DNA of 55,077 nucleotides, taken from a virus (lineage: Duplodnaviria > Caudoviricetes). The stretch is taken from the IMG/VR virus record IMGVR_UViG_3300027676_000003, positions 1 to 55,077 of that record; one strand, 5' to 3'. The position numbers were made by a program, and so were the translations under genes. Position 1 is the stretch's first letter. The number at the start of each line of letters is the position of its first letter. The notes beneath the pieces were generated by a model that saw nothing but the letters and a program-made list of their open reading frames with translations, was not told the DNA's origin and did not search any database. Of the stretch, positions 6,284 to 48,086 are shown piece by piece.

Positions 6284-6370
6284 AACTTCATCCCCGTTTA
6301 TGCTTTTTTCTATTGACTTCGCCGCGTTGCGGCATATTTGTTAACGCCACCTCGTCACTTTAATGATTTC

Positions 6371-6592: not shown

Positions 6593-6602
6593 ATAGCGGC
6601 GC

Positions 6603-6672
6603 ATCATAATCGTAATGTATTGCGACTGTCAACTGGATTTTCGCAATATATTGCGCTCGTAATTTGCTACGA
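6603..6672. promoter_or_regulatory. OR-like region: three 16-bp operators and leftward promoter
   Basis: tcgtaatgtattgcga 6610-6625, tcgcaatatattgcgc 6641-6656, tcgtaatttgctacga 6657-6672; minus-strand TTGACA-18-TATGAT flanks the first. Confidence 0.85.
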
Positions 6673-6691
6673 AGACATTACCTTGCCGCTC

Positions 6692-7363
6692 ATGTCATTA
6701 ACTACCCTTGACCTTCCCTCAAACCCAGCCGAGCGCTGGCGCGTTTTGATTCGCGGCGTCATGCAACAGAAAAACATAAAACTGACCCCTTGGGCTCGAT
6801 CAGCTGGAATAAGCGAAGGAACCTTGAGAGCTTTTCTAAAAGGTGATACAAGAACTATGCAGATCGAGACAGTAGAGCGCCTATTAAGCGCCGCCGGTTC
6901 CTCACTTGAAGAGGCGCTGGGACACTCGCCAGGGAGGAGAAAAGTGCCGATTATTGGAACCGTCGGGGCTGGGGCTCAGGTCGTCCCTGTAGATGACCTC
7001 CCGCTTATTCCGAAACTCATAGCGGACACCGAGCGCGAGTACATCAACTGCGAGTGGGTTGATGCGCCGCCAGGTGTCGCTGATGAAGGAATCGTCGCGT
7101 TAAAGATAAAGGGCGATTCGATGATGCCGTATATGCGGGACGGCTCCATTGTCTATTACTCCGACCGGTTTTTAGGGGGCGCACCCGACCAGTGCCTTGA
7201 CCGGTTGTGCGTAGTCCAGATTGGAGACGGAGCCACCTTTGTCAAGATTGTTGAAAGGTCTCAACTGCACGGGAAGTTCGATCTGAAGAGCTACAATTTC
7301 CATACTATGCGCGATGTGACACTTGCATGGTGTGCTCCGGTAATCTTCATCAAGCCAGCTTGA
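6692..7363 (+). CDS. cI: CI-like repressor (HTH + S24 peptidase)
   Basis: N-terminal HTH, VGAG cleavage site, IKGDSM and FVK catalytic dyad motifs. Confidence 0.92.
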   Translation: MSLTTLDLPSNPAERWRVLIRGVMQQKNIKLTPWARSAGISEGTLRAFLKGDTRTMQIETVERLLSAAGSSLEEALGHSPGRRKVPIIGTVGAGAQVVPVDDLPLIPKLIADTEREYINCEWVDAPPGVADEGIVALKIKGDSMMPYMRDGSIVYYSDRFLGGAPDQCLDRLCVVQIGDGATFVKIVERSQLHGKFDLKSYNFHTMRDVTLAWCAPVIFIKPA

Positions 7364-20100: not shown

Positions 20101-21639
20101 CTAAGCGATATTCACCAGAAACGGATCGCTCCACCCAACGCAGTATCCATCTTTCACTATGAAGCACTGAATACTGTGAGTCCCTTTGAATCGAGTAGGC
20201 TCCCTCCTTACCAGCCTTCCTTCTTCGATGGCCGTCTCCTCAAATCTCCCGCGCAGTTGGTTGGCATTCCTCGCCTCAACTCCAGTGTTTACGACCTGCC
20301 AATAAACCTTGAATGGCCGCAGCACGTCTGTCTCGGCGACAAACTTAAGCTTAACATTCTTAGGAACAGCAGGTCCGTTGCTTTCAAAAGGTGTCGGTCG
20401 GAATCCATCACGCTCTACTAACGCAGAAACAATATTCACAGCCCCGTAGGGCACCTTCGGCCAAATAATGGGTTTCCTGTGCGGCGCATCGAGAATTCTC
20501 TGGAGCGCGCCGGCGGATTTACGAACCAAGGACTTTTCGAGCAGCGCACGGTGTCGTCTTCGTGCAGCTTTTTCAAGAATGTCGCGCCCTATGCGTGGTG
20601 ACAACGCCTCGATAAAGCCCTCAATATCATTTTGCTCCGCTGCCGTATTAAAGTCAGCGCGAACGGTTTCGAGCCAGTCATAGAAGGCATCTTTTCGCTT
20701 TGGCTCATCTTTCCACGCATCGGCGAAGTTCTCTCGTGGATCAGAAGGATTCGGAATCCAATACTGCCCGTTCCGAACCTTGATGTAGTCTTCCATCCTC
20801 GTCAGGATGCTCAACAATGCACCCGTTATATTCGCTTCTTGTTGATAGGCTGCCGCCGCAAGAGTGCTTATAACTATCGATGTCGGACGCCCATCGGCGT
20901 CTTCGGAAAATCGTACGTTCCTGTGGTGCTTTAATATCTGGATGGCTGCCTGTAAAGGAGTCTTTACCCGAAATGCCGGGATTTCCGCTACGGATGCCCG
21001 CTTTTCCATGAGCATCATAGCTCGCCGTTTGGCCTCGAAAGTGGTCTTCATTCGCTCGTAGAACCACTCTGCATAGCCATTCGGATTGCTAACTGGCCAG
21101 TCATCGGTGAGCCGAACATAATTCGGGTGCTGTTTGTCCGTTATCGATACTGATTTCTCGACGAACGCTTGAGATAGCGAAGCTTCTACCCGAAGGCGCC
21201 GCTGCCGCTGCCCATCCGGTACGCAGGGCAGTAGATCCATATGGAATTGCGCCTCGTCAGCATAATTCAATGTCCAGCACCTGTCCCACCCCGCCGGAGT
21301 TTCCATGCTGTGGGCATCCGAATACAGCCCTAACTCATAACCCAGATCATCGAACAGTTTCTTTTGAGTGGTCAAAAGCTTGTTCTTGGAAAATTCGCAC
21401 ACAATATCCAGGTCATAGTCTTCTCTGCCGTCAAAGGGCCTGATGGCTGTACCCAGCCTGAACGACCCTTGTATGTACACATTGAAAGTGGTGCTAGCGA
21501 AGCGCGAGCCAGGTCGATCTAGCCAATCGCTGACGGACTTATAGCTGCGCTCCGCGGATTCGTATCGGCTTGGTGGAACATCGAGAGTGTCGGCAAGATC
21601 TGAGATTAGGTCTTCAGCCGTCTTTGTCAGGTTTGCCAT
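20101..21639 (-). CDS. CD-NTase (SMODS) with C-terminal AGS-C domain
   Basis: QGSFRLGTAIRP...DYDLD; NPSDPRENFADAW; VYWQVVNTG.EA...LRG.F, GTHSIQCFIVKDG. Confidence 0.9.
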   Translation of the reverse strand: MANLTKTAEDLISDLADTLDVPPSRYESAERSYKSVSDWLDRPGSRFASTTFNVYIQGSFRLGTAIRPFDGREDYDLDIVCEFSKNKLLTTQKKLFDDLGYELGLYSDAHSMETPAGWDRCWTLNYADEAQFHMDLLPCVPDGQRQRRLRVEASLSQAFVEKSVSITDKQHPNYVRLTDDWPVSNPNGYAEWFYERMKTTFEAKRRAMMLMEKRASVAEIPAFRVKTPLQAAIQILKHHRNVRFSEDADGRPTSIVISTLAAAAYQQEANITGALLSILTRMEDYIKVRNGQYWIPNPSDPRENFADAWKDEPKRKDAFYDWLETVRADFNTAAEQNDIEGFIEALSPRIGRDILEKAARRRHRALLEKSLVRKSAGALQRILDAPHRKPIIWPKVPYGAVNIVSALVERDGFRPTPFESNGPAVPKNVKLKFVAETDVLRPFKVYWQVVNTGVEARNANQLRGRFEETAIEEGRLVRREPTRFKGTHSIQCFIVKDGYCVGWSDPFLVNIA

Positions 21640-22192
21640 TGTTTGTTTTTCGGAGCGCTTCCGGAACGAACTTGTCGATCTCTTCCGCCGAAAAAGTATA
21701 CTCTTCACAGTCTTTCAGCGCTTTCTGCGCCGCGCTGTATGCTTTTCCGTTCGTTTGAGGCGCGCCCTTGTAAATCGCGGCTAGCCGAGTTTGAAGAGCA
21801 TCGCGACGTTTGATCGCGTCCTTATCGTCTAACGATTTCATCCGAAGCTCTGCCAATAATGACAAATAGGATTCGCGTATATCCCACAGGCTTGCAGCGG
21901 CATCACGATGCTTTTGCGCCGTGGCCCCTGGGTCGAAATTCTTCACGTAGCCGGCCAGCCAGGCGCTAAAAATTGAAATTATCGCCGTTACGATTCGCAT
22001 CCAAAACTTATCGGCCAGAAGCGTCGATAGGGCACCAGCCGCTGTGACTGACGATGCGAAAATCTGCCCGTACTTGTACCATTTGAGCGTTCCAGCGCAC
22101 TGATCCGCCATTTTCTCGTGCGTCTTATGGGTGTATACGACACGACCGAAACATTCTCGGACCTGCTCTTCAAGTGGTGTAAACGGAGCCAT
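21614..22192 (-). CDS. SLATT-family 2-TM CBASS effector
   Basis: RECFGRVVYTHKTHEK, two TM helices, HRDAA..LW.IRESY.SLL; extended -10 TGATATAAT upstream. Confidence 0.85.
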   Translation of the reverse strand: MAPFTPLEEQVRECFGRVVYTHKTHEKMADQCAGTLKWYKYGQIFASSVTAAGALSTLLADKFWMRIVTAIISIFSAWLAGYVKNFDPGATAQKHRDAAASLWDIRESYLSLLAELRMKSLDDKDAIKRRDALQTRLAAIYKGAPQTNGKAYSAAQKALKDCEEYTFSAEEIDKFVPEALRKTNNGKPDKDG

Positions 22193-27142: not shown

Positions 27143-27297
27143 GCAAGCCCTCGCTTCCCCGGCGCGATAGCAGGCCGTGCTCCCGCGTCAATGACGGTTC
27201 TCGACTTCCGCACCAGCGACCGGGAAGTCTGCGAGCCTATGACGCGCTGCACTCGGCCCGCTAAAAGTGCGCCGAAGCGAGGCCATCCCGGCCTTGC
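27143..27297. other. long imperfect inverted repeat (about 150-nt hairpin)
   Basis: Nested pairs cctcgctt/aagcgagg, cggcgc/gcgccg, tagc/gcta, ggccg/cggcc, cgcgtca/tgacgcg, acttcc/ggaagt. Confidence 0.8.
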
Positions 27298-27314
27298 ACG
27301 ACACAGAGGCCTGC

Positions 27315-30300
27315 ATGAAAAAACACCCGCTTGCAATCGACGCGAACATTATTACACTGCCTCGCGCAACCAACGCGAGAGAAGTCATGGCCCTTCCCCA
27401 ACGCGCGCGCCGCTGGATTCCCAAAACCGTGATCACGCCGGATTTCACTAACCAGCTTGATCTTTTCTCCGAAGCGGTTACAGATACTCCCGCACCGGTT
27501 GAAACCGCTCCGGCGCGCACATCCGGTATATCTCATGCCCGACCACGACCGCCTCAGCAGCTTGATTTTGGAACACTGGACGCGCTACCACCCCTCGATG
27601 CTGGTCCAGCTCCAGATGGAGAGGCGGCTCGCGCAGGAACTGGAGAGAACTGCGGAGATGTTCGCAGAGATGATGTACCAGCTGGTATCGGTTCAGGGGA
27701 TGGAATACAGCCAGGCGTGGGAGCTGGCGATCCAGGAATTCCTGTTACCGGCAGAGTCTTCGTCGACGAACCCGACGAAAAGCCCTCCCGAGACTTCCGA
27801 ATCACCGACGCCCATTCTATCGGGATGGGAGGCGCGCATGAGAAAGCGCGCGCGAACATCGAAGCCATCCGGCTCCTGAAGAAACTCGAAGGGGAAAACC
27901 GGGACGCAACTGACGAAGAGAAGGCGATCCTGTCCAGATACGTCGGCTGGGGAGCGCTAGCTAACTCGCTCTTCGACTACTACGTCGCGCCTGAATGGAA
28001 GAGTACCGCGGCAGAGGTGCGGGACGTGCTCACTCCCGAAGAATACGCATCCGCGCGCGCATCAACGCCCAACGCACATTTCACCTCCCCGATGGTCATA
28101 AAGGCCATCTGGGACGGCCTGGGCCGTATGGGGCTGGGCAAGGGGCAGGTTCTCGAACCCGCCATGGGAGTCGGGCATTTCTTCGGGCTGCAACCGGAAT
28201 CCATGGTGGGCCGGAGGACGGGCATCGAACTCGATTCCATCACGGCCCGCATCGCCCAGAAGCTTTATCCCGATTCCACAATATTCGCCAAAGGCTTTGA
28301 GGAAACGCCGCTTCCGGATAATTACTTCGATGCCGTCGTCGGAAATGTTCCTTTCGGGGATTATGCGGTCCACGACCCCAAAATGAAGCACCAGCTCACG
28401 CGCTCCATCCACGACTATTTCTTCGCCAAATCGCTTGAGAAGGTCAGGCCCGGGGGGGGCATGGCGCTCATCACCAGCCGGTACACCATGGACAAACAGG
28501 ATGAAACGGTGAGGAAGTACCTTTCGGAGAAAGCCGATCTCCTGGGCGCCATCCGCCTTCCCAATACTGCTTTCAAAGGTAATGCCGGAACGGAAGTCAC
28601 GACCGATATTCTCTTCCTCAAAAAGCGCGCGCCCGGCGAACCCTCAGGTGAATCGTGGCTGCACCTGGAGCCGGTCGATACTCCCGACGGGGTCATCCAT
28701 GTCAATGAATATTTCGCCCGCCATCCCGAGATGATGCTGGGAAAAATGAAACTCGAAGGGACGATGTACCGCGGGGCCGAGCCCACACTGGAGGGCCAGC
28801 TTACCCCGGAATTGCTCGCGCAGGCCGTAAGCCGGTTGCCCAAAGGCGCATTCGTCCCGCGAGACCTGCAGCGGCCACCACCCAAGCCGATCCTCGACGC
28901 GGAAGCCTTTAAGGGTATCAAGGACGGGGCTTATGCCATCAGGGATGGTGCGATAGTCATCCGAAACGGCAGCAGCTTCGAGCCCGCCAGCCTTTCGGAG
29001 ACCACCACCGGCAGGGTCCGCGGCATGATGGCGATCCGCGATGCGGTAAGACTTGTGTTTCAAACCCAGTTGGAGGACGCCCCGGAAAGCCAAATTACCC
29101 AAGCCAGGCAGATTCTCAACAGCATCTACGACAGCTACGCAAGGAAGTACGGACCCCTCTCTTCGCGTGAGAATATCCGGGCATTTGCAGGAGACCCCGA
29201 CGCGCCACTTCTTCTCTCCCTTGAACATTACGATCCCGACAGCAAGAGAGCCGTGAAGATGCCCATCTTCACCCGCCGCACTCTTGACAAGCGAAGACCG
29301 GCGGAGCATGTCGAGACTGCCGCCGAGGCGCTCGCGATTTCCCTGAATGAAACAGGTGGAATCCACTGGCCAACACTGGTGCGGCTTACCGGACGGCAAA
29401 ACACGCAACTCCAGCAGGAACTCGACGGGCTGGTTTATCGCAATCCCGAAGGCGAGTGGGAAACGGCGGATCGCTACTTAAGCGGCGACGTCCGCGCGAA
29501 ACTCAAAGCCGCCGAGGCCGCGGTTGCCATCGATCCTTGCTACAAGCGCAACCTTGAGGCGCTGAAGGCGGTCCAGCCGGCGGATCTCCTCCCGGGAGAT
29601 ATCAGCGCAAGGCTTGGCTCTTCCTGGATTCCGGCCAGCGACGTTAGGCGCTTCATCGCGGAATTGCTCGATACCCCGGAAAGCGGTATCAACATCAGCC
29701 ATTCCGGCGCAATAGCCTCATGGGCGGTGACGCTCGACTATACTGCCAAGACCGCCGTGGCAAACACGACCACGTGGGGAACCCCGCGCATTACCGCTGC
29801 CGAACTGATAGACGACGCCCTGAACGGTCGCACACCCACCATCTACGACCAGGTCGACAAGGATACTCGTGTCGTCAACCAGCAGGAAACCATCGCCGCA
29901 AGGGAAGCGCAGCAGAAGATCAAGGACAGATTCTCAGAGTGGATATGGCAGGACGAGGAACGCGCTCAGAGACTTTCCCGCCTCTACAACGACCGCTTCA
30001 ACAATATCCGGCTCAGAACCTATGACGGGTCGCACCTGACCTTCCCCGGAATGAACCGTTCCATGCTCCGGAAGGCTGATCTCGATAAGCACCAGAAGGA
30101 CGCAATATGGCGCACGTTGCAGAGCGACAATACGATGCTCGCACATTGCGTTGGAGCGGGAAAGACCTGGGAAATGGTGGCCGCCGCCATGGAAATGAAA
30201 CGCCTGGGCCTTGCGCATAAGCCCATGATCGTCGTCCCGAACCACCTGGTCGAGCAATGGGGCGCGGCCTTCTTACAGCTCTACCCCCACGCCAACATCC

Positions 30301-32585
30301 TCGTCGCCGGTAAGGATTTCTTCGCCTCAGGCAACCGGCAGAAAGCCATGGCGCGCATCGCCACTGGAAATTACGACGCGGTGATCGTCTCTCATAAATC
30401 GTTTGAGTTTCTGCCGGTATCAGATGAGACCTTCGAGAGATTCGTCGGAAAACAGATCGACCAGTTGGAAGATGCCATCCGGGAGGTGAAAGCTGAAAAG
30501 GGCGACAACCGCAGGATCGTCAAGGAACTGGAGAAGGCGAAGAAGCGACTCACGGCAAAACTGAAGGAGCGTGCCGACCGCGAGCGGAAGGATGACGGCA
30601 TCACCTTCGAGCAGATGGGGATAGACCGGATTTTCGTTGACGAAAGTGATCTTTTCAAGAATCTCGGGGTGCAATCCAAGATGACGCGCGTGGCGGGGAT
30701 CTCGAATACCGAAAGCAACCGCGCGCTCGATATGTACATGAAGACCCGCTATATCGCGGAGCGGGGAGGCGGTATCGTGTTCGCCACCGGGACGCCGATT
30801 TCAAACACCATGGCCGAGATGTATATCCTACAGCGCTACCTCGCGCCAGAACTCTTGCAGGCGGCGGGTGTTGAACACTTCGACGCATGGGCTGCCAACT
30901 TCGGCGAAGCGGTCACGGCACTGGAACTGGCACCCGACGGCTCCGGATACCGGATGCATACCCGGTTCTCCAAATTCGTCAACCTGCCCGAGCTGCTCTC
31001 GATGTTCCGCACCTTCGCTGACGTGCAGACGGCGGACATGCTGCACCTTCCGAGACCCGAAATCGACGGCGGCAAGCCGCATATTACGGCCGCCCCGGCA
31101 TCACCAGCGCTTAAGGATTTTGTCGCAAGTCTCGTGGAGCGCGCCCAGAAACTTAAGACCGTCAAAGACCCGCGCGCCGACAACATGCTGAAAATCACAG
31201 GAGACGGACGCAAGGCCGCGCTCGACATGCGCCTGGTCGGCGGTGTTGTGGATGAAGGCGTGGATACGAAGGTTTCCCGCGCCATCACGAAAATCTACGA
31301 CACCTGGGCGGCCACCCACGGCAAGAAATCGACCCAGCTCGTCTTCTGTGACTTATCCACCCCGAACGCCGACAAGTTCAATGTCTATGACGAAATCCGC
31401 GAGAAGCTTATCGCCAAAGGCGTTCCTGAGAAGGAAATCGCCTACATCCACGACGCCGATACGGATATCCAGAAGAAGAACCTCTTTGACGCGGTGAATG
31501 CCGGGAAGGTCCGCATCCTGCTTGGCTCGACGGAAAAAATGGGCGCCGGGACGAACGTGCAGAAGCGCCTCGTGGCACTGCATCATCTCGATGCGCCATG
31601 GAGACCTCGTGATATCGAACAACGGGAGGGCCGGATACTCCGGCAGGGCAATGAAAATCCGAGCATCCAGATTCATCGTTACGTTACAGAGGGTTCGTTC
31701 GATGCCTATATGTGGCAATGCTTGGAAACAAAAGCGAGATTTATCAATCAGGTGATGAACGGCAGCGTCACTGTGCGGCAGGCCGAAGACTTGGAAGGCG
31801 GCGCGCTTACCTACGCCGAAATCAAAGCCATCGCATCCGGCAATCCGGCGGTGATGGAGAAGGTCAAAGTCGATACCGAAGTCCGCAAGCTCGACCAGCT
31901 CCGGGCTTCCCATGTGAACCAGCAGTACAAAATCCGCAGGGAATTGGCGAGTCTGCCGGACCAGATTGACCGGCTGAAGAAGTACCACGCCGCCGTCAGT
32001 TCCGATATTGCTACACGCGATACGCACGCCGACGAAGACTTCGTGATGAAGGTCGGGAATCGGGAGTTCTCGGGCAAGGGCGCGCGTGAGGAGGCTGGGA
32101 ATGCACTCAACACCGTGGTCATGTCATGGCGAGACGACAAGACGCTCAGAGTTCGCGGGCACTACCGGGGATTCGAGATACTGAGCCGGGGCAGCGACTT
32201 CAAGGACGGCAGACCTGACATCTACGTCCGAGGCAAGGCCACTTATGAGGCAAACCTGAATCCGGAAAGCCCGCTCGGCACGATCGCCAGTATCGATCAT
32301 GTCCTGCGCAGCCTGGATAAGCGCGCTGAGGATGAGCAGCACGACATTGAGCGCCACGAGAAGGCCCTGTCCGATTACAGGGCGCAGCTTGGGAAGCCCT
32401 TCGAGCATGAGCTGCGGTTGAAGGAACTGCTGGCGAAGCAGGCGCAGCTTAACGCGGTACTTGATCTCGACAAGCACGATGCCCAAGTCGTTGCCGAAAG
32501 CCCGGATGCCGACACCAGAGAGGTTCCCTCCACATTCGCCGGTCGGGTGTCCCAGGGCGCGACCGCCGCACTGGCGCCGCAGTAG
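27315..32585 (+). CDS. DarB-like N6-methyltransferase/SNF2 helicase fusion (start uncertain)
   Basis: [52 protein letters not shown]. Confidence 0.92.
27535..27879 (+). CDS. nested TnpV-like protein in +1 frame
   Basis: HW..YHPSM...L...L..EL...G.....AWEL....LLP.E pattern. Confidence 0.5.
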
Positions 32586-32606
32586 CTTCACGAAAGGAAA
32601 CAGCAT

Positions 32607-33560
32607 ATGAACCCGAACGACAAACCGCCGCCGCGCGACTACCGCCAGGAAGTCACCAACGACATCATACGGATGCTTCAGGAGGGCACGGCCCCCTGGC
32701 AGAAGCCATGGGAAGCCGGCGAGCTTGGCCGGTCACCGTACAACCCCACCACCAACAAGCCGTATCGCGGCGGCAACGTGCTCGGCCTGATGATCGCAAG
32801 CATCCGGAAGGGCTATACGGACCCGCGCTGGTGTACCTATAAACAGGCGGCGGATCAGGGCTGGCAGGTACGAAAGGGCGAGAAATCCACCGCCATTGAA
32901 TTCTGGGAAATCGGGCACGGCAAAGACGATGAGGGAGAATCCGACGCGGACAAACCCCGCTCCCGGATGATTCACCGCGTCTATTCCGTCTTCAATGCCC
33001 AGCAGATAGACGGCATCCCGCCCCTGCATGTCGAGCCGCGCAGAGCCTTCGAACTCATCGAAGCCGGAGAGAACATGCTCCGGAACTCCGGGGCCGACAT
33101 CCGGCACGGCGGCGCGAAGGCATACTACAACCCCGGCACCGACCATATCCAGCTGCCCCCGAAAGACTGCTTCACGGACGAGCCCCGGTACTACAGCACC
33201 GCCCTCCACGAGCTGGCGCACTGGACGGGCGCGAAGCACCGGCTTAACCGGCTCACGGACAACCAGCCGTTCGGCAGCCCCGAGTATGCCAAGGAGGAAA
33301 TCCGGGCCGACCTGTCGAGCCTCTTCCTTGCCGCCGAGCTGGGTATCCCCTACGATCCGAAGGACCAGGCCGCCTACATCCAGAGCTGGATAAAGGTGCT
33401 GAAGAACGACAAGAATGAAGTGTTCAGGGCCGCTGCCGACGCATCAAAGGCGTGCGATTATCTGCATTCGCTGGAAAACGGGCAGGTGAAGACCGCGGAG
33501 CCTGGCCCGCACACCGAGCGCATCAGCGCGGAGGCACAGGAGCGGCGGAGATATCGGTGA
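32607..33560 (+). CDS. ardC: ArdC-family antirestriction ssDNA-binding/zincin protein
   Basis: PWQKPW, YRGGN, W.TYKQA...VRKGEK, VFNAQQ, HELAHWTG, YAKEE. Confidence 0.93.
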   Translation: MNPNDKPPPRDYRQEVTNDIIRMLQEGTAPWQKPWEAGELGRSPYNPTTNKPYRGGNVLGLMIASIRKGYTDPRWCTYKQAADQGWQVRKGEKSTAIEFWEIGHGKDDEGESDADKPRSRMIHRVYSVFNAQQIDGIPPLHVEPRRAFELIEAGENMLRNSGADIRHGGAKAYYNPGTDHIQLPPKDCFTDEPRYYSTALHELAHWTGAKHRLNRLTDNQPFGSPEYAKEEIRADLSSLFLAAELGIPYDPKDQAAYIQSWIKVLKNDKNEVFRAAADASKACDYLHSLENGQVKTAEPGPHTERISAEAQERRRYR

Positions 33561-33569
33561 CGATTTTCC

Positions 33570-33597
33570 TTGACTAGGGCCAGCGGCCCTCTATCAT
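33570..33597 (+). promoter_or_regulatory. promoter with palindromic spacer, probably leaderless
   Basis: TTGACT-16-TATCAT; spacer AGGGCC-agc-GGCCCT; ATG 7 nt after the -10. Confidence 0.7.
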
Positions 33598-33604
33598 CCC
33601 TCGC

Positions 33605-34105
33605 ATGAGCGAAGTATTTTTCATAGCCGATACCCACTTCGGGCATCGCGGGATCATCGAATTCAGCGAGACGAAGTCGCATCGCCCGTTCGACTGCATC
33701 GAAGACCACGACGAGGAATTAGTACGCCGCTGGAACGCCACCGTCGCGCCCAAGGATACTGTATGGCACCTTGGCGATTTCTGCTTCGGCAAACGGAATC
33801 TCGAAATAGCGGGGCGATTGAACGGCAACAAAAAACTCGTCATGGGCAATCACGATATGTACGCAACGGAGGATTACCTTCGCTATTTCACGCGCCTGGC
33901 TGGCGTCGTGGAATACAAGGGGCTTTCGCTCTCCCATGCACCACTCCATGAAAACCAGTTCCCGCGCTGGTACATGAATGTGCATGGGCATCTCCATACA
34001 AAGACGGTGCCGGACCCGCGCTATGTCTGCGTCTCATGCGAACAGACTGACCTTACACCGGTTCCCTTCGACTGGATTCTCAACAAATGGGCGGAGCGCA
34101 ACTAA
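33605..34105 (+). CDS. calcineurin-like metallophosphoesterase
   Basis: DTH, GD, GNHD, SH.P, HGHLH. Confidence 0.92.
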   Translation: MSEVFFIADTHFGHRGIIEFSETKSHRPFDCIEDHDEELVRRWNATVAPKDTVWHLGDFCFGKRNLEIAGRLNGNKKLVMGNHDMYATEDYLRYFTRLAGVVEYKGLSLSHAPLHENQFPRWYMNVHGHLHTKTVPDPRYVCVSCEQTDLTPVPFDWILNKWAERN

Positions 34106-35091
34106 TGACCAGAACCATCGTGAAAATGCAGTTTGGCAGCCACATCTACGGCACAAACCTGCCTACCAGCGACCTCGACTACAAGGCGGTGCATATTCCG
34201 GTCGCGGGCGACATTCTCCTTCAGCGCGTCAAGCCCGCCATTTCCATAAAGACGAAGCAGGATGACACCAAGAAAAATACTGCATCTGATATCGACTTTG
34301 AATCGTTCGCCTTGCAGAAATATATGGCGATGCTCATGGAAGGGCAGACCGTTGCCCTCTCGATGCTCTATACGCCCGAGCAATGGATCATCGAGCGCAC
34401 AGAAGTCTGGGACGGCATAATTGCACAGAAAGAAAAGTGGCTTCATCGCGGCGTCAGCGCGTTTGCCGGTTACTGCCGTCAACAGGCCAACAAGTATGGG
34501 ATCAAGGGAAGCCGCGTGGCTGCTGCACGGGCCGCTGTCGCGCTATTCGAGGGCCTTGTGGCCCAGCACACCGCCCAAACCAAGATTATCGATGTCTGGA
34601 ACGAAATCGAAGCCTTCGTAAAACAAGGTCATGAACACGTCGCCATAGTCGTTGAGGCCCAATTCGATGACCGGCCACCGGCCACAATGCTTGAGGTTTG
34701 CAACCGAAAAGTCCAGCAGCATGCCAACCTGAAAATGGGCTTGAGTATTTACAAGAAAGTCTTTGAGGAGTACGGCGCCCGCGCACTTCAGGCCGAAAAC
34801 AACGAGAACGTGGACTGGAAGGCGATGATGCACGCCCTCCGCGTCTGCCGCGAGGCCGAGGAGTTATTGCTCCGCCACAGCATCACGTACCCACGACCGG
34901 AGGCGGAATTGCTCTTGAAAGTACGCACGGGCGAACTGCCCTATAAAGAGGTCGCGGAGATGCTTGAGCACGGCCTGGTGCGACTGGAGGAGTGCCAGCG
35001 CCTTTCGACACTGCCGGAAAAGGCTGACGCCCTGGAGGCCGAGAGGCTTGTCACGGCAGCCTATACCCAGGAAATCCTGAAGGCCACATGA
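34105..35091 (+). CDS. Pol-beta superfamily nucleotidyltransferase, phage type
   Basis: FGSHIYGTNLPTSDLD; GYC..QA.KYG; DWKAMMHALR; LLKVRTG. Confidence 0.88.
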   Translation: MTRTIVKMQFGSHIYGTNLPTSDLDYKAVHIPVAGDILLQRVKPAISIKTKQDDTKKNTASDIDFESFALQKYMAMLMEGQTVALSMLYTPEQWIIERTEVWDGIIAQKEKWLHRGVSAFAGYCRQQANKYGIKGSRVAAARAAVALFEGLVAQHTAQTKIIDVWNEIEAFVKQGHEHVAIVVEAQFDDRPPATMLEVCNRKVQQHANLKMGLSIYKKVFEEYGARALQAENNENVDWKAMMHALRVCREAEELLLRHSITYPRPEAELLLKVRTGELPYKEVAEMLEHGLVRLEECQRLSTLPEKADALEAERLVTAAYTQEILKAT

Positions 35092-35261
35092 CGCCCGACG
35101 AGTTGGCCGAAATTGGGCAACGGCTTTACGGTAAGCGCTGGCAGACTGCTTTGGCCAGAAGGATAAAAGTGGATGCCAGAACGGTACGCCGCTGGCTAAA
35201 AGGCGACCGGGAGATCAGGCCACAGGTAGCAGAGCATCTCCGGAGCTTGCGCCCGCAGTGA
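35088..35261 (+). CDS. small HTH protein (57 aa, not in ORF track)
   Basis: MTPDELAEIGQRLYGKRWQTALARRIKVDARTVRRWLKG...; ATGA overlap. Confidence 0.8.
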   Translation: MTPDELAEIGQRLYGKRWQTALARRIKVDARTVRRWLKGDREIRPQVAEHLRSLRPQ

Positions 35262-35482
35262 ATTCCGGGTCGGGCGTTTCATCCTCGAAGCCGGAGCCCG
35301 CGAGGGGTTCAGCGCCTAAATCGTCAAGCACGCCCTGCATCTGCTTAGTCATCGGTATCTTCGGCTGTCGTGGCTGCATGCCCAAACCTACTATTTTGTT
35401 TCCCGAATAGGCAAGCCTTTTCCTGCATAAGTCCGCTTGCGTCACATGGGTCACGAATTATGGCATGATGGCGTTAATCGCC

Positions 35483-35848
35483 ATGGCCAAAACAAAAATA
35501 ACGCCAGATCTCCTTCAGGCTGCGTTGGTAGGTTTTGAGGTTGAGAAGCAACGGATCGAGGCCAAGATTGCCGAACTACGGGCCATATTGGGTTCCGCTC
35601 CAGTACCCGCCACAAGATCCGCCAAGCCCAAGCGTACACTTAGCGCCGCCGCGAGAAAGAGAATCGCCGAAGCCCAGAAGCAAAGATGGGCAAAGTTCCG
35701 GTCGGAAGCTCACGCTGCCGGACCAACCAAGCGCGTTTTAAGCGCAGCTGGCCGAAAGGCGATTGTCGCCGCCACCAAGAAGCGATGGGCTGAAAAAAGG
35801 GCGGTAAGGAGTGGCACAGACGGCACCGGCCCCAGAGAAACCGAATGA
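35483..35848 (+). CDS. basic histone-like protein
   Basis: N-terminal coiled coil plus two LSAA.RK.I....K.RWA repeats. Confidence 0.75.
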   Translation: MAKTKITPDLLQAALVGFEVEKQRIEAKIAELRAILGSAPVPATRSAKPKRTLSAAARKRIAEAQKQRWAKFRSEAHAAGPTKRVLSAAGRKAIVAATKKRWAEKRAVRSGTDGTGPRETE

Positions 35849-35861
35849 GGTTCGTACATCC

Positions 35862-36257
35862 ATGACAAAAGCGGATGCAAAGAAGGCATACGAAGACCTC
35901 TCGGCCAAGGCAAGTGACATCGTGCGGCAGCTTTCGTTTGGCGGAATAGCGTTGATCTGGCTCTTTCGGCTCGGCACAGATAAGGTCTTTACTTTGGATC
36001 AAACGATGCTGAATGCCGCTCTCTTCATCTTCCTGGCGCTCTTTTTCGACTTCTTGCAGTATCTTTGCAGTACTCTGATCTGGTTTATATACTTCAGATA
36101 TAAAGAGAAGAAGAATATTCCGGCGGCCGAAGACTTCAAAGCTCCGGAACAACTGAACTGGCCAGGCTGGGTGTTCTTCGGCGCGAAAGCGGTAATGATT
36201 CTTGTTGCCTATCTGGGATTCATCATCCCATTCCTGTTCCGAAAATTCGTCGGATAA
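35862..36257 (+). CDS. membrane protein (about 3 TM)
   Basis: Three hydrophobic segments, GAGG RBS. Confidence 0.75.
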   Translation: MTKADAKKAYEDLSAKASDIVRQLSFGGIALIWLFRLGTDKVFTLDQTMLNAALFIFLALFFDFLQYLCSTLIWFIYFRYKEKKNIPAAEDFKAPEQLNWPGWVFFGAKAVMILVAYLGFIIPFLFRKFVG

Positions 36258-36315
36258 AATGAGACTCTCGCCGCTTCCCCATATGCCAAAATGGTCCAGG
36301 GGAATCAAAGGAACC

Positions 36316-36684
36316 ATGGCTAAACTCACGAACACCATCATCGAAGCCGCCATTGCGGGTTTCGAGGCACAGAAGAAAAGCATCGACGGCCAGATCGCGC
36401 AACTGCGCGGGATGCTGATCGGCGCAGCGGTACCCGCCGAGGAGGCACCGGCAAAAGGAACGCGTAGGAAATTCAGCGCGGCAGCCCGCAAGAGGATGCG
36501 GGAGGCTCAGCAGGCCAGGTGGGCGAAGATCCGGGGTGAATCATCTCAACCCAGCAAGAACGCCGATCCCGCGAAAACCGCTCCGGCAGCCAAGCCCAAG
36601 CGCAAACTGTCTGCCGCGGGTCGGAAGGCGATCAGCGCAGCAATGAAGAAGCGCTGGGCTGCTAAAAGAGTTGGCCGTGTTTAG
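36316..36684 (+). CDS. basic histone-like protein, paralog of 35483-35848
   Basis: Same GFE..K..I...IA.LR N-terminus and SAA.RK...RWA repeats. Confidence 0.75.
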   Translation: MAKLTNTIIEAAIAGFEAQKKSIDGQIAQLRGMLIGAAVPAEEAPAKGTRRKFSAAARKRMREAQQARWAKIRGESSQPSKNADPAKTAPAAKPKRKLSAAGRKAISAAMKKRWAAKRVGRV

Positions 36685-36708
36685 CGCTGCGAATGAGTTG
36701 CGATGAAT

Positions 36709-37614
36709 CTATTTACTCCGGCGACTTCCAAAGTCCCCATCGCAAACTAGAGCCAGAGGGCTCTGGTCAAACCACCATTCGTCATATTCGGACTTCGCGG
36801 CAATGATGGCAGCATCACCCTGTGGGTCGCCAATCTTACTCCAGAAGAATTCCTTCGAGATACCGCGACGAAGACACATCTCTGTGACCATCTCGTCACG
36901 CTCGGCGTCCGTAGTCACGAGAGCCTGTGGGATCACTAAGTCAGTAACTGGAGGCTCGCCCGGCTTCAGAAACACCTTATGTATGAGGTCAAAATACGAC
37001 GGCTTCGACCAATATTCATACAACTCAAAGGTCAAATCTCCATTGTCGATCTTGATGAAGTCTAGTCCACTTTCGTCCTCAAAAAAGTGAACGGTGACGG
37101 CACGTGGGGCGAAGTATTCTGCAAGCTTCCGTTTGAAATCCCCTGCCTTTATCATTTTGCGTCCCGACCACCGTTCTGAATTCTCCGGATCTACGCCGAC
37201 CGCCTTAACCACCTGCTTAATTGACCGATCGAAAATCTCATGGCTGTTTTTTCTCCTTTTCGCTTTGCTCCAATCCGTGAAGTCTATGTATTTCTTTCCC
37301 TTCAAAAAACTCGGGATTTTACAATCGCGAAATAAGATCGAAATTACCCTGAGTCGTGCCTGCTTGATTTGGTTCCCGAGCGCAAGCTCCAGTTCTTCCT
37401 GAACCCACCGTGAGTTTACAGAATTTGGTGTGAGGATAATTGCCAAAAAGGCCATCTCCTCGATGGCCGCCGATATCGTTCGTATCAGACTCGAACCGGC
37501 CTTAATTTCATCTTCATCCACCCACACGCGAATATCAAACCGCTCAAGGCGGCTCTTTAGCATACGAACAAACGGCTTGTCGATGGAGCTGTGGCAAATG
37601 AATATCGATGACAT
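36709..37614 (-). CDS. TIR-domain protein with unknown C-terminal domain
   Basis: IFICHSSIDK, VWVD..EI..G, SVNSRWVQEEL. Confidence 0.88.
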   Translation of the reverse strand: MSSIFICHSSIDKPFVRMLKSRLERFDIRVWVDEDEIKAGSSLIRTISAAIEEMAFLAIILTPNSVNSRWVQEELELALGNQIKQARLRVISILFRDCKIPSFLKGKKYIDFTDWSKAKRRKNSHEIFDRSIKQVVKAVGVDPENSERWSGRKMIKAGDFKRKLAEYFAPRAVTVHFFEDESGLDFIKIDNGDLTFELYEYWSKPSYFDLIHKVFLKPGEPPVTDLVIPQALVTTDAERDEMVTEMCLRRGISKEFFWSKIGDPQGDAAIIAAKSEYDEWWFDQSPLALVCDGDFGSRRSK

Positions 37615-37945
37615 TGGCCTTCCAATACGCACATTCTATCAACCAGCCGGCCACGAGGAACAGTGCTTATTTGCCCCCCCGTGTTTCCGGGTGTTGAACG
37701 CCGGTTCAAAGCGCTGATTTCTTCAAGCCCCTTCCTTTCACCTTCATCAGGCCAGCCACATCAATTCCGATCCTTTGCTCGAAACCTGCCACAAATCGGC
37801 CTTAGGGACGTCAAGCCGCGGCCCGCTCCATTCGCCGCGCCGGTAGTCGCACGTCTCCCGTGTAACGCCTTGACGTCAGTCCGATCCATGACCGGTTCTT
37901 CGCAAGGTCGGCAATGATGCCGGCCTGAAATCGAAAGGAAAGTTT

Positions 37946-38272
37946 ATGAAGAAGTCAGCTCTACCGATCGGCCAGTTCACCAAGACGGAACACGGCTACA
38001 CCGGGAAACTCGAAACCCTCGCGGTTAAGGCGAACATCACGCTCCAGCCGAACGACGACAAGGAGAAGGATTCGCACCCGGATTTCATCGTCCTTCACGG
38101 ACAGACCGAGATCGGCGTGGCGTGGAACCAGGAGGACGACCGCGGATTCTATGTGTCCATCGTCTTCGAGGAGCCTAGCCTCGCGCCCGGTTCATACAAG
38201 CTCATCAAGACCGGCGTGGAAAAGGGTTACGAGCTGCGGTATCGCAAGCCTTACAACAAGAAGGACAAATAG
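37946..38272 (+). CDS. DUF736-family protein
   Basis: IGQF...YTG.L.TL, HPDF.V, EIGVAW, YVSI. Confidence 0.8.
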   Translation: MKKSALPIGQFTKTEHGYTGKLETLAVKANITLQPNDDKEKDSHPDFIVLHGQTEIGVAWNQEDDRGFYVSIVFEEPSLAPGSYKLIKTGVEKGYELRYRKPYNKKDK

Positions 38273-44443: not shown

Positions 44444-44858
44444 CCCCCTTGATCTCTTTCAAAATGTCGCCAAAATCCGGGTACGACTTCACGCTGCTGA
44501 TAATGGGTTCCTTTTCCGCGTTGGCTTCTTTCAGCGTTGCCTGCGCCGTGGTCATTTCCTTAATGCCGTTTAACTGCCCCTCCCGGATCTCGCCCACCAG
44601 CACGCCGAGATTATGGCCTTCAATCTCAACGGCGCGCGTCCCGAACAAAACCACCAGCGTTTCGTGGGCGCCGTCATCAGTCCACTGGTAGCCGCTGTAA
44701 TGCGACCACGGGAAGCCTTCGGAATGCCTGCCGTCCCTTCTCTCCACGTGCAGACTGAACGCCTGCGCCGTAAGCTGGCGCTCGCTGGTAAAGGCCTTTG
44801 CTTCGTCGGCCTTCCCGTCGAGAATCCGCTCTACAATCCTGCTGCGCGCCTCAGGCAT
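44403..44858 (-). CDS. hypothetical protein coupled to relaxase
   Basis: GAGGTG RBS overlapping the relaxase end. Confidence 0.7.
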   Translation of the reverse strand: MPEARSRIVERILDGKADEAKAFTSERQLTAQAFSLHVERRDGRHSEGFPWSHYSGYQWTDDGAHETLVVLFGTRAVEIEGHNLGVLVGEIREGQLNGIKEMTTAQATLKEANAEKEPIISSVKSYPDFGDILKEIKGDEHETGHARRFER

Positions 44859-47619
44859 AACCCACCTCGCGCCCGCGCCAGCGATCGGCAATCGCCGCCG
44901 CACGCTGTTTCAGAAAGCGCCCCACCCTATTGCGCTCCAGCGTTTGATGGAACCGCTCGCGCCAGGCGGGCCGGAGTTTCGTTTTCGTCAGCTCCACCGC
45001 CGACAACCGCTCGGCGGTCCGGGAAATAGCGTTTCGGACATTGTCCTTGGAAGCGATGTAAATCTTGGCCTGTTCCCGTCCACGGGACGCCGCCACATAC
45101 CAGCCCTGCCGATTTACGGCCGGTAACGATTCATCGCCCACAGAAATAAATACCCGGTCTGCGGTTTTACCCTGTGCGGCGTAACTGGTATCGGTGTAGC
45201 CGAGACTCAGATGGCCCCAGTTCTTCGGTAGCAGCCTGCCCTTTTCCAGCCGGATATCGCCCTCTTTCGTAAAGCCCTCGACAGTGAAGATGTCGCCGTT
45301 GTTGAGGCGCGTTCCTTTCGCTTGTCCCTCGACTTTGGCCTCGCCGTTTTTGGTGATTCGCAGGAGATCACCCTTTGCAATCGCAACCTCCCGTGTCCGG
45401 AAGACATCGAAGCGGTTCACCTGACTCAGGGGTAAAGACGTTTGCGTGCCGTCCTGTTTCTGCAAGGTTAAGACGCCGGATTGTAAGGTTTCGCTGGAGT
45501 ATTTTAATAGCGCAGCCTTCTCACCGCGCCTAAAGCCCTTGGCATTCTGATGGAATTCCAGCACCATGCCCGGCTCGTAATTCCTGGAATCTGATTTTTG
45601 GGCATCCGTCCAGCCGGTCGATTTCCGGGCGATGAATTGCCGCTCCTCACCAAGGGCGCCGCGTTCTTTCAATGCCCCGCGCAGCTCATCCGTTACCTTC
45701 GCGGCTTCCGCATGCGTGGGAACGACGATTAACGCGCGGCGGCCTTCGTCACGGGCATTCAGGTAATCAGCAACCAGCATCCCATGGCGTTCATCTCCGG
45801 AGGCCTCGATAACGCAGCCGAGGCGGTCGAGGTAGTCGAAGCCCTTTTGCGCCGACTTCCCGGTGCCTTCAGCAATCTCCTCGACGGCCTTTTTATACCC
45901 CGGAGTCGTCTGCCGGCGGATCTCTGTCAGTTTTGCAAACTTCACGCCGCCTTCTTTTTCCAGAAGGCGGAATGCATCACCGGCGGAAACACTATTGTGT
46001 TGAGCATAGTCGCCCGACAGGATAAGCCGGTTCCCATTACGTTTCGCCAAATCAGTGAGGCGCCGCATGTCCTTTGCGGAAACGAGACCGGCTTCGTCAA
46101 CCCAGAGAATCTGGCCTTTCGTTTTCTCCTGAAGCTTTTCGTTTTTCAGGAGCATTTCGAGTGTCTCGGCGTCCTTGAATCCCTCCTTCGCCAGTACATT
46201 TCGAGAGGCCTGTGACGATGGCGCAAATGCGAATACGTGTTGCCCGGTGCCTTCGATTGCATCGCGAGTTGCGCGCATCATGGTGGTTTTACCGGTTCCC
46301 GCTTTGCCGGAGATTGCGCTGATGGCGTCACGGCTGGTGAGAATATGGACGGCAGCTTTCTTTTGCTCGGCGGAAAGTCCGTTCAACGATACAAACTCGC
46401 CGGGTTTGTTTGCATGCAACTCCGAGATCGATACAAACCCCCTGAACTTCCGCTGCCCGTCTTTCCCGAACTGGAGAAACGCCACTTCGTTATTGAGCAC
46501 CGTCTTCGTGGTCATCATCAGCTGGCCTTCGTGCTTTACCGGAATGGCTTCCGGGTGCTGTGCCAAATCGGCAACATCTTCGGGTAGGATGGAGCCGACG
46601 CCATGCATCAGGGCTTCGGCTTTGACCTTGGGTTCCGAGACGGCACTGGCGCGTTCGAATGAATGCTCCAGCGCGTATGTTTTCGCCTGCTCGGGCGTAA
46701 TGGCGTTATCGCCCTTCGTCCAGCCGTCGCCCGCCGTTTGAATCGCAAGACGCTCTTCACGGGTAAGGCGGCTGTCCCATTCCTTTCGCAGCTCCGCCAT
46801 GGATTGCGGCTCTTTCGATTTCTTCTCGCGAGTCTTCCGGCCAAGATCCGCTTTTGCAGCCGGGTCGCTAATTCCCAGCCGTTCCGCTTCAGCCTCGATA
46901 ATGGCAGTCCGGCGGGAGAATTTCGCCGTCGTCTCTTTCGATATCCCGGCGATTCGGAAGCCCGAGCCTTCCTTTTCTATGCCGTAGCCGATAGCTTTCA
47001 GCTTCGACGCCAGACGCGCATGAAACGCCGATTGATGCCATGCCTTGTCCCGCACGATGTTTCCCCACTGGCAGGCCTTAAGGATGTTTTCTTTCGGGTC
47101 TAGCGAAACGTTCAGACAGGTTACGTGCCGATGTTTCTGAGGATCGACCGTTCCATCTTCCAAAGGGCGGGTGGTTTCGTGCGGCCACATCACATAAATG
47201 ATGTTGCCGCTCTTGCGGTCCTCATCCTTTCCGCCTTTCCTGACCCGCACGGCCATTTCCGATTCGATATCGGCCATCGTTTCGCGGATAGAATCATCCA
47301 CCAGGCCGTTAATTCGTTTGTCGTAGAGCGCCGCCAGCGTTACCGATTTGCCCACATCGAAGGTAACGTCCGTCATGATTCTGCGGTCATCCCGTGTCCG
47401 TGAGGTAAGCCTCTCGGATGTCAAAGGATTTCGGTTTTCACAGAGGGAATAGAAGCTTTCCTTCGTGGCCTCCATTCCCCCAATTCCAAGCTGCGTTGCC
47501 GTCTTGCCCTCGTACACCGGAATCTCCCTTGCATCCTTCCCGAAATAGTCGTCCCGACTCAGGTGGGCGTGGTAGTCCTTCGCTTCTTTCGTATTCGTGA
47601 AATGCGTGATCGAAATCAT
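44851..47619 (-). CDS. MobF (TrwC/TraI-like) relaxase-helicase
   Basis: N-terminal Tyr pair, DVTFDVGKSVT, HETTRP...DPQKHRH, FSRRT; helicase GKAGTGKT, DEAG, YVAASRGR. Confidence 0.93.
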   Translation of the reverse strand: MISITHFTNTKEAKDYHAHLSRDDYFGKDAREIPVYEGKTATQLGIGGMEATKESFYSLCENRNPLTSERLTSRTRDDRRIMTDVTFDVGKSVTLAALYDKRINGLVDDSIRETMADIESEMAVRVRKGGKDEDRKSGNIIYVMWPHETTRPLEDGTVDPQKHRHVTCLNVSLDPKENILKACQWGNIVRDKAWHQSAFHARLASKLKAIGYGIEKEGSGFRIAGISKETTAKFSRRTAIIEAEAERLGISDPAAKADLGRKTREKKSKEPQSMAELRKEWDSRLTREERLAIQTAGDGWTKGDNAITPEQAKTYALEHSFERASAVSEPKVKAEALMHGVGSILPEDVADLAQHPEAIPVKHEGQLMMTTKTVLNNEVAFLQFGKDGQRKFRGFVSISELHANKPGEFVSLNGLSAEQKKAAVHILTSRDAISAISGKAGTGKTTMMRATRDAIEGTGQHVFAFAPSSQASRNVLAKEGFKDAETLEMLLKNEKLQEKTKGQILWVDEAGLVSAKDMRRLTDLAKRNGNRLILSGDYAQHNSVSAGDAFRLLEKEGGVKFAKLTEIRRQTTPGYKKAVEEIAEGTGKSAQKGFDYLDRLGCVIEASGDERHGMLVADYLNARDEGRRALIVVPTHAEAAKVTDELRGALKERGALGEERQFIARKSTGWTDAQKSDSRNYEPGMVLEFHQNAKGFRRGEKAALLKYSSETLQSGVLTLQKQDGTQTSLPLSQVNRFDVFRTREVAIAKGDLLRITKNGEAKVEGQAKGTRLNNGDIFTVEGFTKEGDIRLEKGRLLPKNWGHLSLGYTDTSYAAQGKTADRVFISVGDESLPAVNRQGWYVAASRGREQAKIYIASKDNVRNAISRTAERLSAVELTKTKLRPAWRERFHQTLERNRVGRFLKQRAAAIADRWRGREVGYA

Positions 47620-47732
47620 CGACGCCGCCTGTAGGGGGAAGCCGATCCGATACAACCAAAACGTGAGCGCTGCAACATGAAAAAGCAACCCATGGAAGCG
47701 TATAGACTCGTCCCCGATCAGAGCTCGGAACA

Positions 47733-48086
47733 TCAGCGCTCCCATGACGGCGCGGGCCTGCGGATCTTATCCGGAGCAGCCCCCGGTTGCTGTTTGTCCT
47801 TCAGATGGGCCTGGTGTTCCCCAACCCATTTATTAAACGCGCTGTAGCTTTCCTGCATTGCGTGATCGCGTCGTTGCATCGGCCTGTGCCACGTCGTTTT
47901 CGCCTCACCCCCAGCAGGGGTGAATGTGAGCCCGGCGTGATACCCTTTTTCGCTCATCCCCAGACACGCCTGAACCGAATAGCCTGATGCCTGATCTGCG
48001 TAAGCCCCGCCTCTCCAGACGGTCCTTATCGCGTGATCCGCCTGATAGGCGTGCTCCGGCCCTTTCATCCAATCGAGGAATGACAT
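47733..48086 (-). CDS. hypothetical protein upstream of relaxase
   Basis: GGAG RBS before MSFLDW; co-directional with the relaxase. Confidence 0.65.
   Translation of the reverse strand: MSFLDWMKGPEHAYQADHAIRTVWRGGAYADQASGYSVQACLGMSEKGYHAGLTFTPAGGEAKTTWHRPMQRRDHAMQESYSAFNKWVGEHQAHLKDKQQPGAAPDKIRRPAPSWER

Follow-up and report, generated by a model that had tools for sequence, protein, structure and literature searches.

We analysed a stretch of 55,077 nucleotides (the window), which covers positions 1 to 55,077 of the IMG/VR record IMGVR_UViG_3300027676_000003 (Duplodnaviria; Caudoviricetes). Three overlapping genes of the window encode a calcineurin-like phosphoesterase (PE), a Pol-beta nucleotidyltransferase (NT) of the RlaP family and a small helix-turn-helix (HTH) protein, and they are located directly behind a DarB-like and an ArdC-type anti-restriction gene (Table 1). 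This set of genes, referred to below as the cassette, had been outlined in a first-pass annotation made from the sequence alone, and both the open reading frames (ORFs) and the domains were confirmed, with the HTH_3 match just under its cut-off.

The five metallophosphoesterase motifs of PE (DxH, GD, GNHD/E, H and GHxH) are invariant in 36 aligned homologues, the window included (D9, H11, G57, D58, G81, N82, H83, D84, H111, G128, H129 and H131), and judged by these residues PE is catalytically intact. Weak profile matches were observed with the phosphodiesterase GpdQ (E-value 4e-4) and with a solved metallophosphoesterase (MPE) nuclease (E-value 2e-3), and the score against the ligase-associated PdeM model TIGR04123 (25.5 bits) was far below the cut-off of 150. 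A specific kinship to the Pnkp phosphatase domain was not found when the profile was compared with solved structures.

The PE and NT genes share a TAATG stop/start overlap, and an in-frame alternative ATG for NT is present at 34087. NT scored 42.3 bits against the RlaP model PF10127 (cut-off 23), with residues 5-140 placed on profile positions 21-148 of 249, and matched phrog_388 across residues 2-324 (8.5e-77). When NT was compared with phage sequences using tblastn, 1554 matching records were obtained, mostly T-even-like, of which 1441 reached at least 80 % query coverage. The match is annotated as nrdC.11 in T2 (33.8 % identity, 90 % coverage) and in RB49. Among 58 aligned NTs, the Pol-beta residues S12, D23 and D25 are invariant and G11, D64 and E66 nearly so; the window has all six.

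The AlphaFold (AF2) model of NT had a predicted local distance difference test score of 90.9. The sequence search of the PDB gave nothing at E ≤ 1 and Foldseek gave nothing at E ≤ 1e-3. Using VIA-align, the best structural match was Hailong HalB (9dbh; Z 9.8, root-mean-square deviation 4.5, 172 residues aligned, 19 % identity), followed by an uncharacterised NT-like structure (3c18, Z 8.1) and by HEPN-like helical bundles that align with NT residues ~115-306 (Z 6-7). The predicted NT-PE complex (alignments A2 and A3) was given a score of 0.00, which speaks neither for nor against binding.

The NT and HTH genes are joined by an ATGA overlap. HTH additionally matched phrog_12690, and homologues with 50-91 % identity were found within the NT operons of five other loci (designated by L numbers), where they are placed after NT (L141 and L142), before an HD-domain gene (L007) or between Ro60 and NT (L012 and L016). 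HTH thus belongs to this gene set, of which it is an optional part.

The promoter proposed in the annotation, the palindrome in its spacer and the ATG located 7 nt past the -10 element were all found in place. The 16-nt spacer reads AGGGCCAGCGGCCCTC, and the palindrome is present as a single exact copy in the window. When positions 32000-38000 were scanned for the consensus, only two hits were obtained, of which the cassette promoter was the better one. The NT and HTH genes are preceded by purine-rich stretches, whereas no Shine-Dalgarno-like run precedes the ATG of PE at 33605. As a ribosome-binding stretch is missing and the start codon is exactly 7 nt past the -10 element, a leaderless layout would be expected for the PE mRNA, and PE is probably translated from such an mRNA, its transcription start being a putative one.

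Comparable layouts were seen in two other loci. In L141, the gap between the ArdC and PE genes is 45 nt (44 nt in the window), the sequence TTGAAC-17-TAACGT is followed by 8 nt and ATG at the same site, and an imperfect repeat (GGACCA-C-TGGCCC) stands where the window carries the palindrome. In L175/L008, a terminator-like hairpin is followed by TAGTGT, 7 nt and ATG, again with no ribosome-binding site. Both layouts would fit a first gene without a leader that is transcribed from an internal promoter. No shared operator motif was recognisable upstream of the HTH-containing operons of L142, L007, L012 and L016. From the layout in the window, it is plausible that HTH autoregulates the cassette via the spacer palindrome, the candidate operator.

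Gene neighbourhoods and exchange of the partner gene

Relatives were located via peptide words of the query and up to 80 loci were taken per scan; all counts are therefore samples. In the NT scan of genomes (one genome per species, 29 loci), PE was adjacent in one locus (L008) and an HTH homologue was directly upstream in three (L007, L012 and L016), with another located 4 kb off on the opposite strand (L029). In the NT scan of metagenomes (80 of 129 confirmed loci), PE was found in five loci, directly upstream of NT in L141, L144, L145 and L175 and 2.3 kb off in L190. HTH was directly downstream in L141 and L142, with a weak distant match in L144, and ArdC was found in one locus (L141). The identity values of L175 equal those of L008, so the two were counted as one locus. 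The gene products neighbouring NT in Erythrobacter phage L02 and in T2 had no similarity to PE, and Pfam gave no phosphoesterase among them.

The check on neighbourhood conservation suggested in the first-pass annotation had a mixed outcome. The exact trio recurs once, in L141, where PE, NT and HTH are 89 %, 77 % and 91 % identical to those of the window and ArdC (79 %) is directly upstream, and the PE-NT pair recurs in three further loci; the full trio was present in one of the 80 metagenome loci but in none of the 29 genome loci and none of the 26 viral loci. The proposal of a self-contained three-gene operon holds only narrowly: HTH is optional and, as the cassette is co-directional with darB-ardC, transcripts from upstream may run on into it. 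The gene upstream of ArdC in L141 (1549-2514) encodes an R2K-clade ATP-grasp protein, not a DarB-like protein.

A maximum-likelihood tree was drawn for 58 rows, consisting of the window and 57 of 104 distinct full-length matches; L007 was left out as a stop interrupts its frame. The NT of the window is placed within a clade of nine rows (SH-like approximate likelihood ratio test, SH-aLRT, 98), in which its closest relatives are 59-77 % identical. The gene directly upstream of NT is PE in five rows (window, L141, L144, L145 and L175) and an HD-domain gene in two (L142 and L143), and a Pnkp-Rnl1 pair takes this place in the other two (L005 and L006). Every NT of the clade is thus preceded by a phosphohydrolase or an end-healing pair, and the stop and start codons of partner and NT overlap or nearly abut throughout. 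Sister rows can carry different partners, as seen for L144 (PE) and L143 (HD; SH-aLRT 99).

Outside the tree, L007 (66 % identity) has the order Pnkp-Rnl1-HTH-HD-NT. Its NT homologue (5986-6972) is broken up into separate ORFs at 5986-6561 and 6574-6972 and is possibly a pseudogene or an assembly error. The HD partner is of the HD_4 type, that is, the SpoT/small-alarmone-hydrolase type of HD domain, and HD homologues flank NT in at least seven loci outside the clade.

The best explanation for two unrelated phosphohydrolase folds being exchanged at one coupled position is that they do the same job for NT. Since RlaP enzymes cannot use 3'-phosphorylated ends, this job would be the clearing of a blocking 3' phosphate, and a phosphate-removing partner would fit the need of NT on nuclease-cut RNA.

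Most cellular NT relatives (38-46 % identity) have a canonical RlaP downstream, and the Pfam families of the neighbours of NT relatives include RtcB, Ro60/TROVE, HAD-kinase Pnkp, T4-type Rnl1, Hen1, RtcA and HD, with RtcB, Ro60/TROVE, Pnkp, Hen1 and RtcA found near those cellular relatives. Among loci whose flank measured 600 nt or more, a canonical RlaP of 265 aa was directly downstream of NT in 15 of 26 from genomes, 31 of 54 from metagenomes and none of 25 from viral contigs. Clade members lack it. The long NrdC.11-like NT and the canonical RlaP usually form an adjacent pair (L009-L033 and L146-L220); the two share the NT core only, which hints at two different, complementary activities.

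tRNA genes were found within ~1 kb of the operon in four of the eight clade loci scanned, namely L006 (three), L007 (one), L142 (one) and L143 (four), and no tRNA gene was found near the operon in L141, L144, L005 and L175. In L142, the tRNA-like element immediately precedes a Ro60/TROVE gene and may represent a module of the Y-RNA type. In L006 and L144, full-length DarB-like homologues (43-44 % identity) adjoin NT in convergent orientation; they were found in none of the other loci examined, and integrases are present at L007 and L144.

The surrounding element

The source record is linear, is estimated to be 75 % complete and reads as a mosaic mobile element. Phage-type genes for recombination and regulation (CI-like repressor, RecT, exonuclease and methylases) are located at 3-19 kb of the window. 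Besides the cassette and its DarB-like and ArdC neighbours, the window encodes a SMODS-SLATT pair, a serine recombinase, a TrwC relaxase and TIR, DUF736 and H-NS-like proteins. No virion gene was recognised among the 47 window proteins scanned against PHROGs. The record is filed as a virus, yet the element may instead be conjugative or mobilisable, or a hybrid. When the region 33400-35400 was compared with plasmids using megablast, no match was obtained, and the tblastn search of NT against plasmids gave three records only, none with useful context.

The pair resembling a cyclic oligonucleotide-based antiphage signalling system (CBASS) is a defence system that shares the element with anti-restriction genes, and the TIR gene is on the opposite strand, 1.4 kb downstream of the cassette. 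Between the two Lys/Arg-rich paralogues sits a hydrophobic ORF (35811-36257); none of these three had a Pfam or PHROG match. The L141 region 5935-6255 encodes a 46 %-identical relative of the window downstream ORF, and the downstream block is therefore syntenic with the cassette.

Table 1 Coordinates of the cassette, of other features in the window and of tRNA genes near related operons
Feature	Sequence	Position	Strand	Basis or remark
Sigma-70-like promoter, TTGACT-16 nt-TATCAT	Window	33570..33597	+	10/12 consensus matches; -35 33570-33575, -10 33592-33597
Perfect 6-3-6 palindrome AGGGCC-AGC-GGCCCT, candidate operator	Window	33576..33590	.	Read directly in promoter spacer
PE, calcineurin-like binuclear metallophosphoesterase, 166 aa	Window	33605..34105	+	PF00149 26.5 bits (cut-off 21.5); phrog_547 4e-52
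NT, RlaP-family (T4 NrdC.11-like) Pol-beta nucleotidyltransferase, 328 aa	Window	34105..35091	+	PF10127, phrog_388
Small HTH protein, 57 aa, candidate cassette repressor	Window	35088..35261	+	HTH_3 21.1 bits (cut-off 23); phrog_3626 1.6e-14
DarB-like methylase/helicase anti-restriction protein, 1772 aa	Window	27267..32585	+	phrog_10089 E = 0; Pfam SNF2/Helicase_C/Eco57I
ArdC-type anti-restriction protein, 317 aa	Window	32607..33560	+	ArdcN 1.1e-37; MPTase-PolyVal 1.6e-47
Two paralogous Lys/Arg-rich proteins	Window	35465-35848, 36202-36684	+	Repeated 'SAA-RKR...AQ..RWA' type motif
TIR-domain protein	Window	36709-37632	-	TIR_2 1.8e-26; PADLOC PDC-S66, ThsB-like, other TIR models
TrwC relaxase	Window	44851-47742	-	
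CBASS-like pair: SMODS/DncV-like NTase + AGS-C sensor domain (534 aa), then SLATT_4 effector with two transmembrane segments (191 aa)	Window	20101-22189	-	
tRNA-Met (CAT), single, in phage-like left part	Window	4780-4856	-	Sole tRNA of the window, 29 kb from cassette
tRNAs Met, Trp, Pro	L006	3512-3810		
tRNA Glu	L007	3114-3190		
tRNA Gly	L142	1937-2009		
tRNAs Gly, Cys, Gly, Ile(tat)	L143	5652-6024		

Function of the cassette

The gene identities, the intact catalytic motifs, the translational coupling and the phosphohydrolase-then-NT order with its non-homologous replacement were all observed directly. We consider it moderately likely that the cassette is a minimal, ligase-less module that heals and fills RNA 3' ends, that it probably serves the mobile element as counter-defence and that it is possibly autoregulated by HTH. 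The substrates that we infer are RNA ends left by the ribonucleases of defence systems or competitors (e.g. anticodon nucleases), which would carry 2',3'-cyclic or 3'-phosphate groups and would sometimes be one or two nucleotides short. PE would clear the blocking 3' phosphate and thereby expose a 3'-OH, and NT would put back one or a few nucleotides on it, an activity extrapolated from the cluster-1a RlaP enzymes. Sealing would be done by a host ligase, or would be needless where the damaged end is the 3' tail of a tRNA. HTH would probably repress the cassette's own promoter via the spacer palindrome.

A narrower form of this idea makes phosphohydrolase and NT a stand-alone, ligase-independent system for the repair of tRNA 3' tails. 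PE or HD would strip a cyclic phosphate, phosphate or pyrophosphate and NT would rebuild the tail, and conjugative elements would deploy the pair as early counter-defence, beside DarB and ArdC, against effectors that pyrophosphorylate tRNAs or trim their tails. We regard this form as possible but rather doubtful; if it is true, anti-defence islands extend from DNA-level to translation-level protection.

Several observations weigh against reading the cassette as a heal-and-fill repair module. In the NT scan of viral contigs (26 loci), PE was within 5 kb in three loci and adjacent in none, and HTH was found in none. In the PE scan of genomes (80 best of 209 confirmed loci, mostly Clostridia), NT was adjacent in one locus, L035, which is the same contig as L008, and one further weak NT match was 4 kb off (E-value 0.006). 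The best phage matches of PE (DES1 and Lacusarx) have no NT adjacent, with rtcB located 2 kb off in Lacusarx. The single clear solved relative of PE in the profile comparison (1xm7, Aquifex aq_1665; 1.3e-21) is of uncharacterised function.

When the NT profile was compared with that of eight canonical RlaP proteins, only 94 N-terminal columns were aligned (probability 24 %, E-value 8e-4), and no full-length likeness to canonical RlaP, its C-terminal helical domain included, was found in this profile-profile comparison. As the alignment is confined to the N-terminal core, the C-terminal two thirds of NT would be a different domain, and RlaP activity is extrapolated. The RlaP biochemistry was moreover obtained from cluster 1a enzymes and not from the NrdC.11 subfamily (PMC12776372). 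Neither of the signals upstream of PE exceeds chance: two promoter-like hits were observed in 6 kb against a shuffle mean of 2.4, and three palindrome copies with up to two mismatches against 3.5 expected in shuffles. For this reason the promoter call rests on its place in the 44-nt ArdC-PE gap and on its partial conservation in L141.

Searches of the window for an RNA ligase, a polynucleotide kinase or RtcB were negative (Pfam, 54 ORFs; PF01139 search of the record, whose completeness is estimated at 75 %), so that the cassette alone could not reseal internally cut RNA. Placement of the cassette in a leading region was also considered; it was not adopted as the origin of transfer was not located, though a TrwC relaxase is present.

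Three functions had been offered for the cassette in the first-pass annotation. RNA-end repair gained support from the RlaP family, from the relatives in repair operons and from the end-healing partner upstream, whereas no match or evidence pointed to a toxin-antitoxin pair or to the degradation of nucleotide signals. As a toxin-antitoxin or 'writer-eraser' pair, NT would tail tRNA 3' ends (MenT-like), PE would remove the added nucleotides and HTH would autoregulate. Such a pair would suit a mobile-element location, the gene order, in which a small enzyme comes before an overlapping NT alongside HTH and a palindromic promoter, is similar to that of many type II toxin-antitoxin operons, and the in vitro targets of nucleotide addition by RlaP enzymes include many cellular RNAs (PMC12776372). 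However, for all three proteins, no toxin-antitoxin or defence NT family was found in Pfam (E ≤ 0.01; including MNT-HEPN and AbiEii/MenT) and no match was found by PADLOC. Most NT relatives stand without PE or HD alongside, in repair operons or alone in T-even phages, a complete Pnkp-Rnl1 repair pair may take the place of the partner, and the accessible text of PMC12776372 reports no toxicity for RlaP. We concluded that this reading is very unlikely.

It is also unlikely that the cassette interferes with nucleotide signals, with PE degrading the cyclic or linear messengers used by CBASS, Thoeris, Pycsar or type III CRISPR and NT being an unrelated or accessory anti-defence gene. The close translational coupling of a phosphohydrolase gene to the NT gene behind it and the replacement of PE by HD or Pnkp-Rnl1 in sister NTs would then be left unexplained, and no similarity to known anti-signal enzymes was found in the libraries searched, even though the cassette lies among anti-restriction genes, the window carries a TIR gene and a SMODS-SLATT pair, PE weakly matches GpdQ and calcineurin-like phosphodiesterases of other families are predicted phage signal degraders (PMC7824862). 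Processing of DNA ends would make PE an MPE/PdeM-like Mn-dependent nuclease or phosphatase and NT a terminal transferase acting on transferred or broken DNA. The neighbouring DarB and ArdC do counter DNA-level defence, but the PdeM and MPE matches of PE that suggest such a role are both far below family thresholds, DNA is not used by RlaP enzymes (PMC12776372) and NT relatives keep company with RNA ligases, Ro60 and tRNA genes, not with DNA-repair genes; we hold this to be highly improbable. The structural match to HalB, the top one for the NT model, raises the idea of an oligonucleotide-signal synthase of a defence system, controlled by PE or HTH. This we find extremely unlikely, as Foldseek gave no significant match, the alignment covers the generic NT core and helices, the NT sequence family and its neighbourhoods favour RNA repair and the cassette contains no membrane effector, with no model search made for a HalA-like partner.

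Comparison with known systems

The RlaP family was reportedly defined by Burroughs and Aravind in 2016 (NAR 44:8525). The parts of the cassette and the repair idea are already in print. In the literature searched, we came across no account of a PE/HD-NT core that lacks a ligase, of its recurrent association with DarB-like and ArdC genes, of the small HTH partner or of the leaderless promoter layout; the 2016 paper, which was outside that search, may list phosphoesterase-NrdC.11-type pairs. What the present analysis adds is that a ligase-free two-enzyme core accompanies DarB-like and ArdC genes in three or more independent arrangements, and that the phosphohydrolase was exchanged between unrelated folds while NT stayed, which is a strong sign of one shared pathway. 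Were the repair module confirmed, the widespread T-even gene nrdC.11 would have a function, the module would be the smallest known RNA-end repair kit, and tRNA-damage repair would join the establishment functions of plasmids and integrative and conjugative elements.

The first-pass annotation did not recognise the cassette as a named system; the NT family does, however, have a name and a recent biochemical characterisation (PMC12776372). The name RlaP of PF10127 refers to the linkage of this family to RNA ligases, and T4 NrdC.11 belongs to cluster 5 of the family network (PMC12776372). Two Pseudomonas RlaP enzymes (cluster 1a) put one or two nucleoside monophosphates on RNA 3'-OH ends, with a preference for a cut-tRNA mimic and for Mn2+, and use neither 3'-phosphorylated ends nor DNA (PMC12776372). 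RlaP was predicted to restore lost nucleotides before ligation (PMC7824862) and was proposed to be an antidote to the nucleotide-excising ribotoxins RloC and PaOrf2 (PMC12776372). How ends become ligase-compatible is a problem raised in PMC12776372, and the cassette, if confirmed, would offer a simple system in which to test what enzymes make ends ready for those of the RlaP type.

The NT of the window is like PfRlaP and PaRlaP of the Pseudomonas Rtc operons (PMC12776372) in its PF10127 family, in its Pol-beta core, in having relatives linked to RNA ligases and in its proposed role, the restoring of nucleotides at damaged RNA 3'-OH ends. Unlike them, it is a longer, NrdC.11-like protein of which only the N-terminal ~100-140 residues align, and, with ligase, RtcA and RtcR all absent from its neighbourhood, it is coupled to a phosphoesterase on a mobile element. 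Its likeness to T4/T2 NrdC.11 is closer (34 % identity to T2 NrdC.11 over 90 % of the length). The limited literature search found no function for NrdC.11 itself, and T2 nrdC.11 differs from the window in having no adjoining phosphoesterase or ligase.

Phage RNA repair as counter-defence is well known from T4 and its response to PrrC. To our knowledge, such repair is little documented for conjugative or mobilisable elements. The T4 Pnkp-Rnl1 pathway is approached by close relatives of the cassette (L005-L007), which carry T4-type Pnkp-Rnl1 upstream of NT; the window differs in having neither kinase nor ligase, with a calcineurin-like enzyme in place of the HAD phosphatase. In bacterial Pnkp/Hen1, the Pnkp phosphatase domain is calcineurin-like. 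A binuclear metallophosphoesterase would likewise do the 3'-end healing in the cassette, whereas the Pfam scan of 54 window ORFs showed neither a kinase or ligase nor a Hen1 methyltransferase. The bacterial CCA-adding enzyme combines a Pol-beta NT with an HD phosphohydrolase that clears 2',3'-cyclic and 3' phosphates, and thus rebuilds tRNA 3' ends without a ligase. In the cassette, unlike in that enzyme, the activities would be on separate proteins of unrelated families, and template-independent CCA specificity is not implied.

The main text of PMC11541004, which deals with the anti-defence islands of plasmid leading regions, has zero occurrences each of nucleotidyltransferase, phosphoesterase, tRNA and RNA ligase. 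The cassette nevertheless resembles these islands in its setting, with accessory genes beside darB-type genes on a conjugative-type element.

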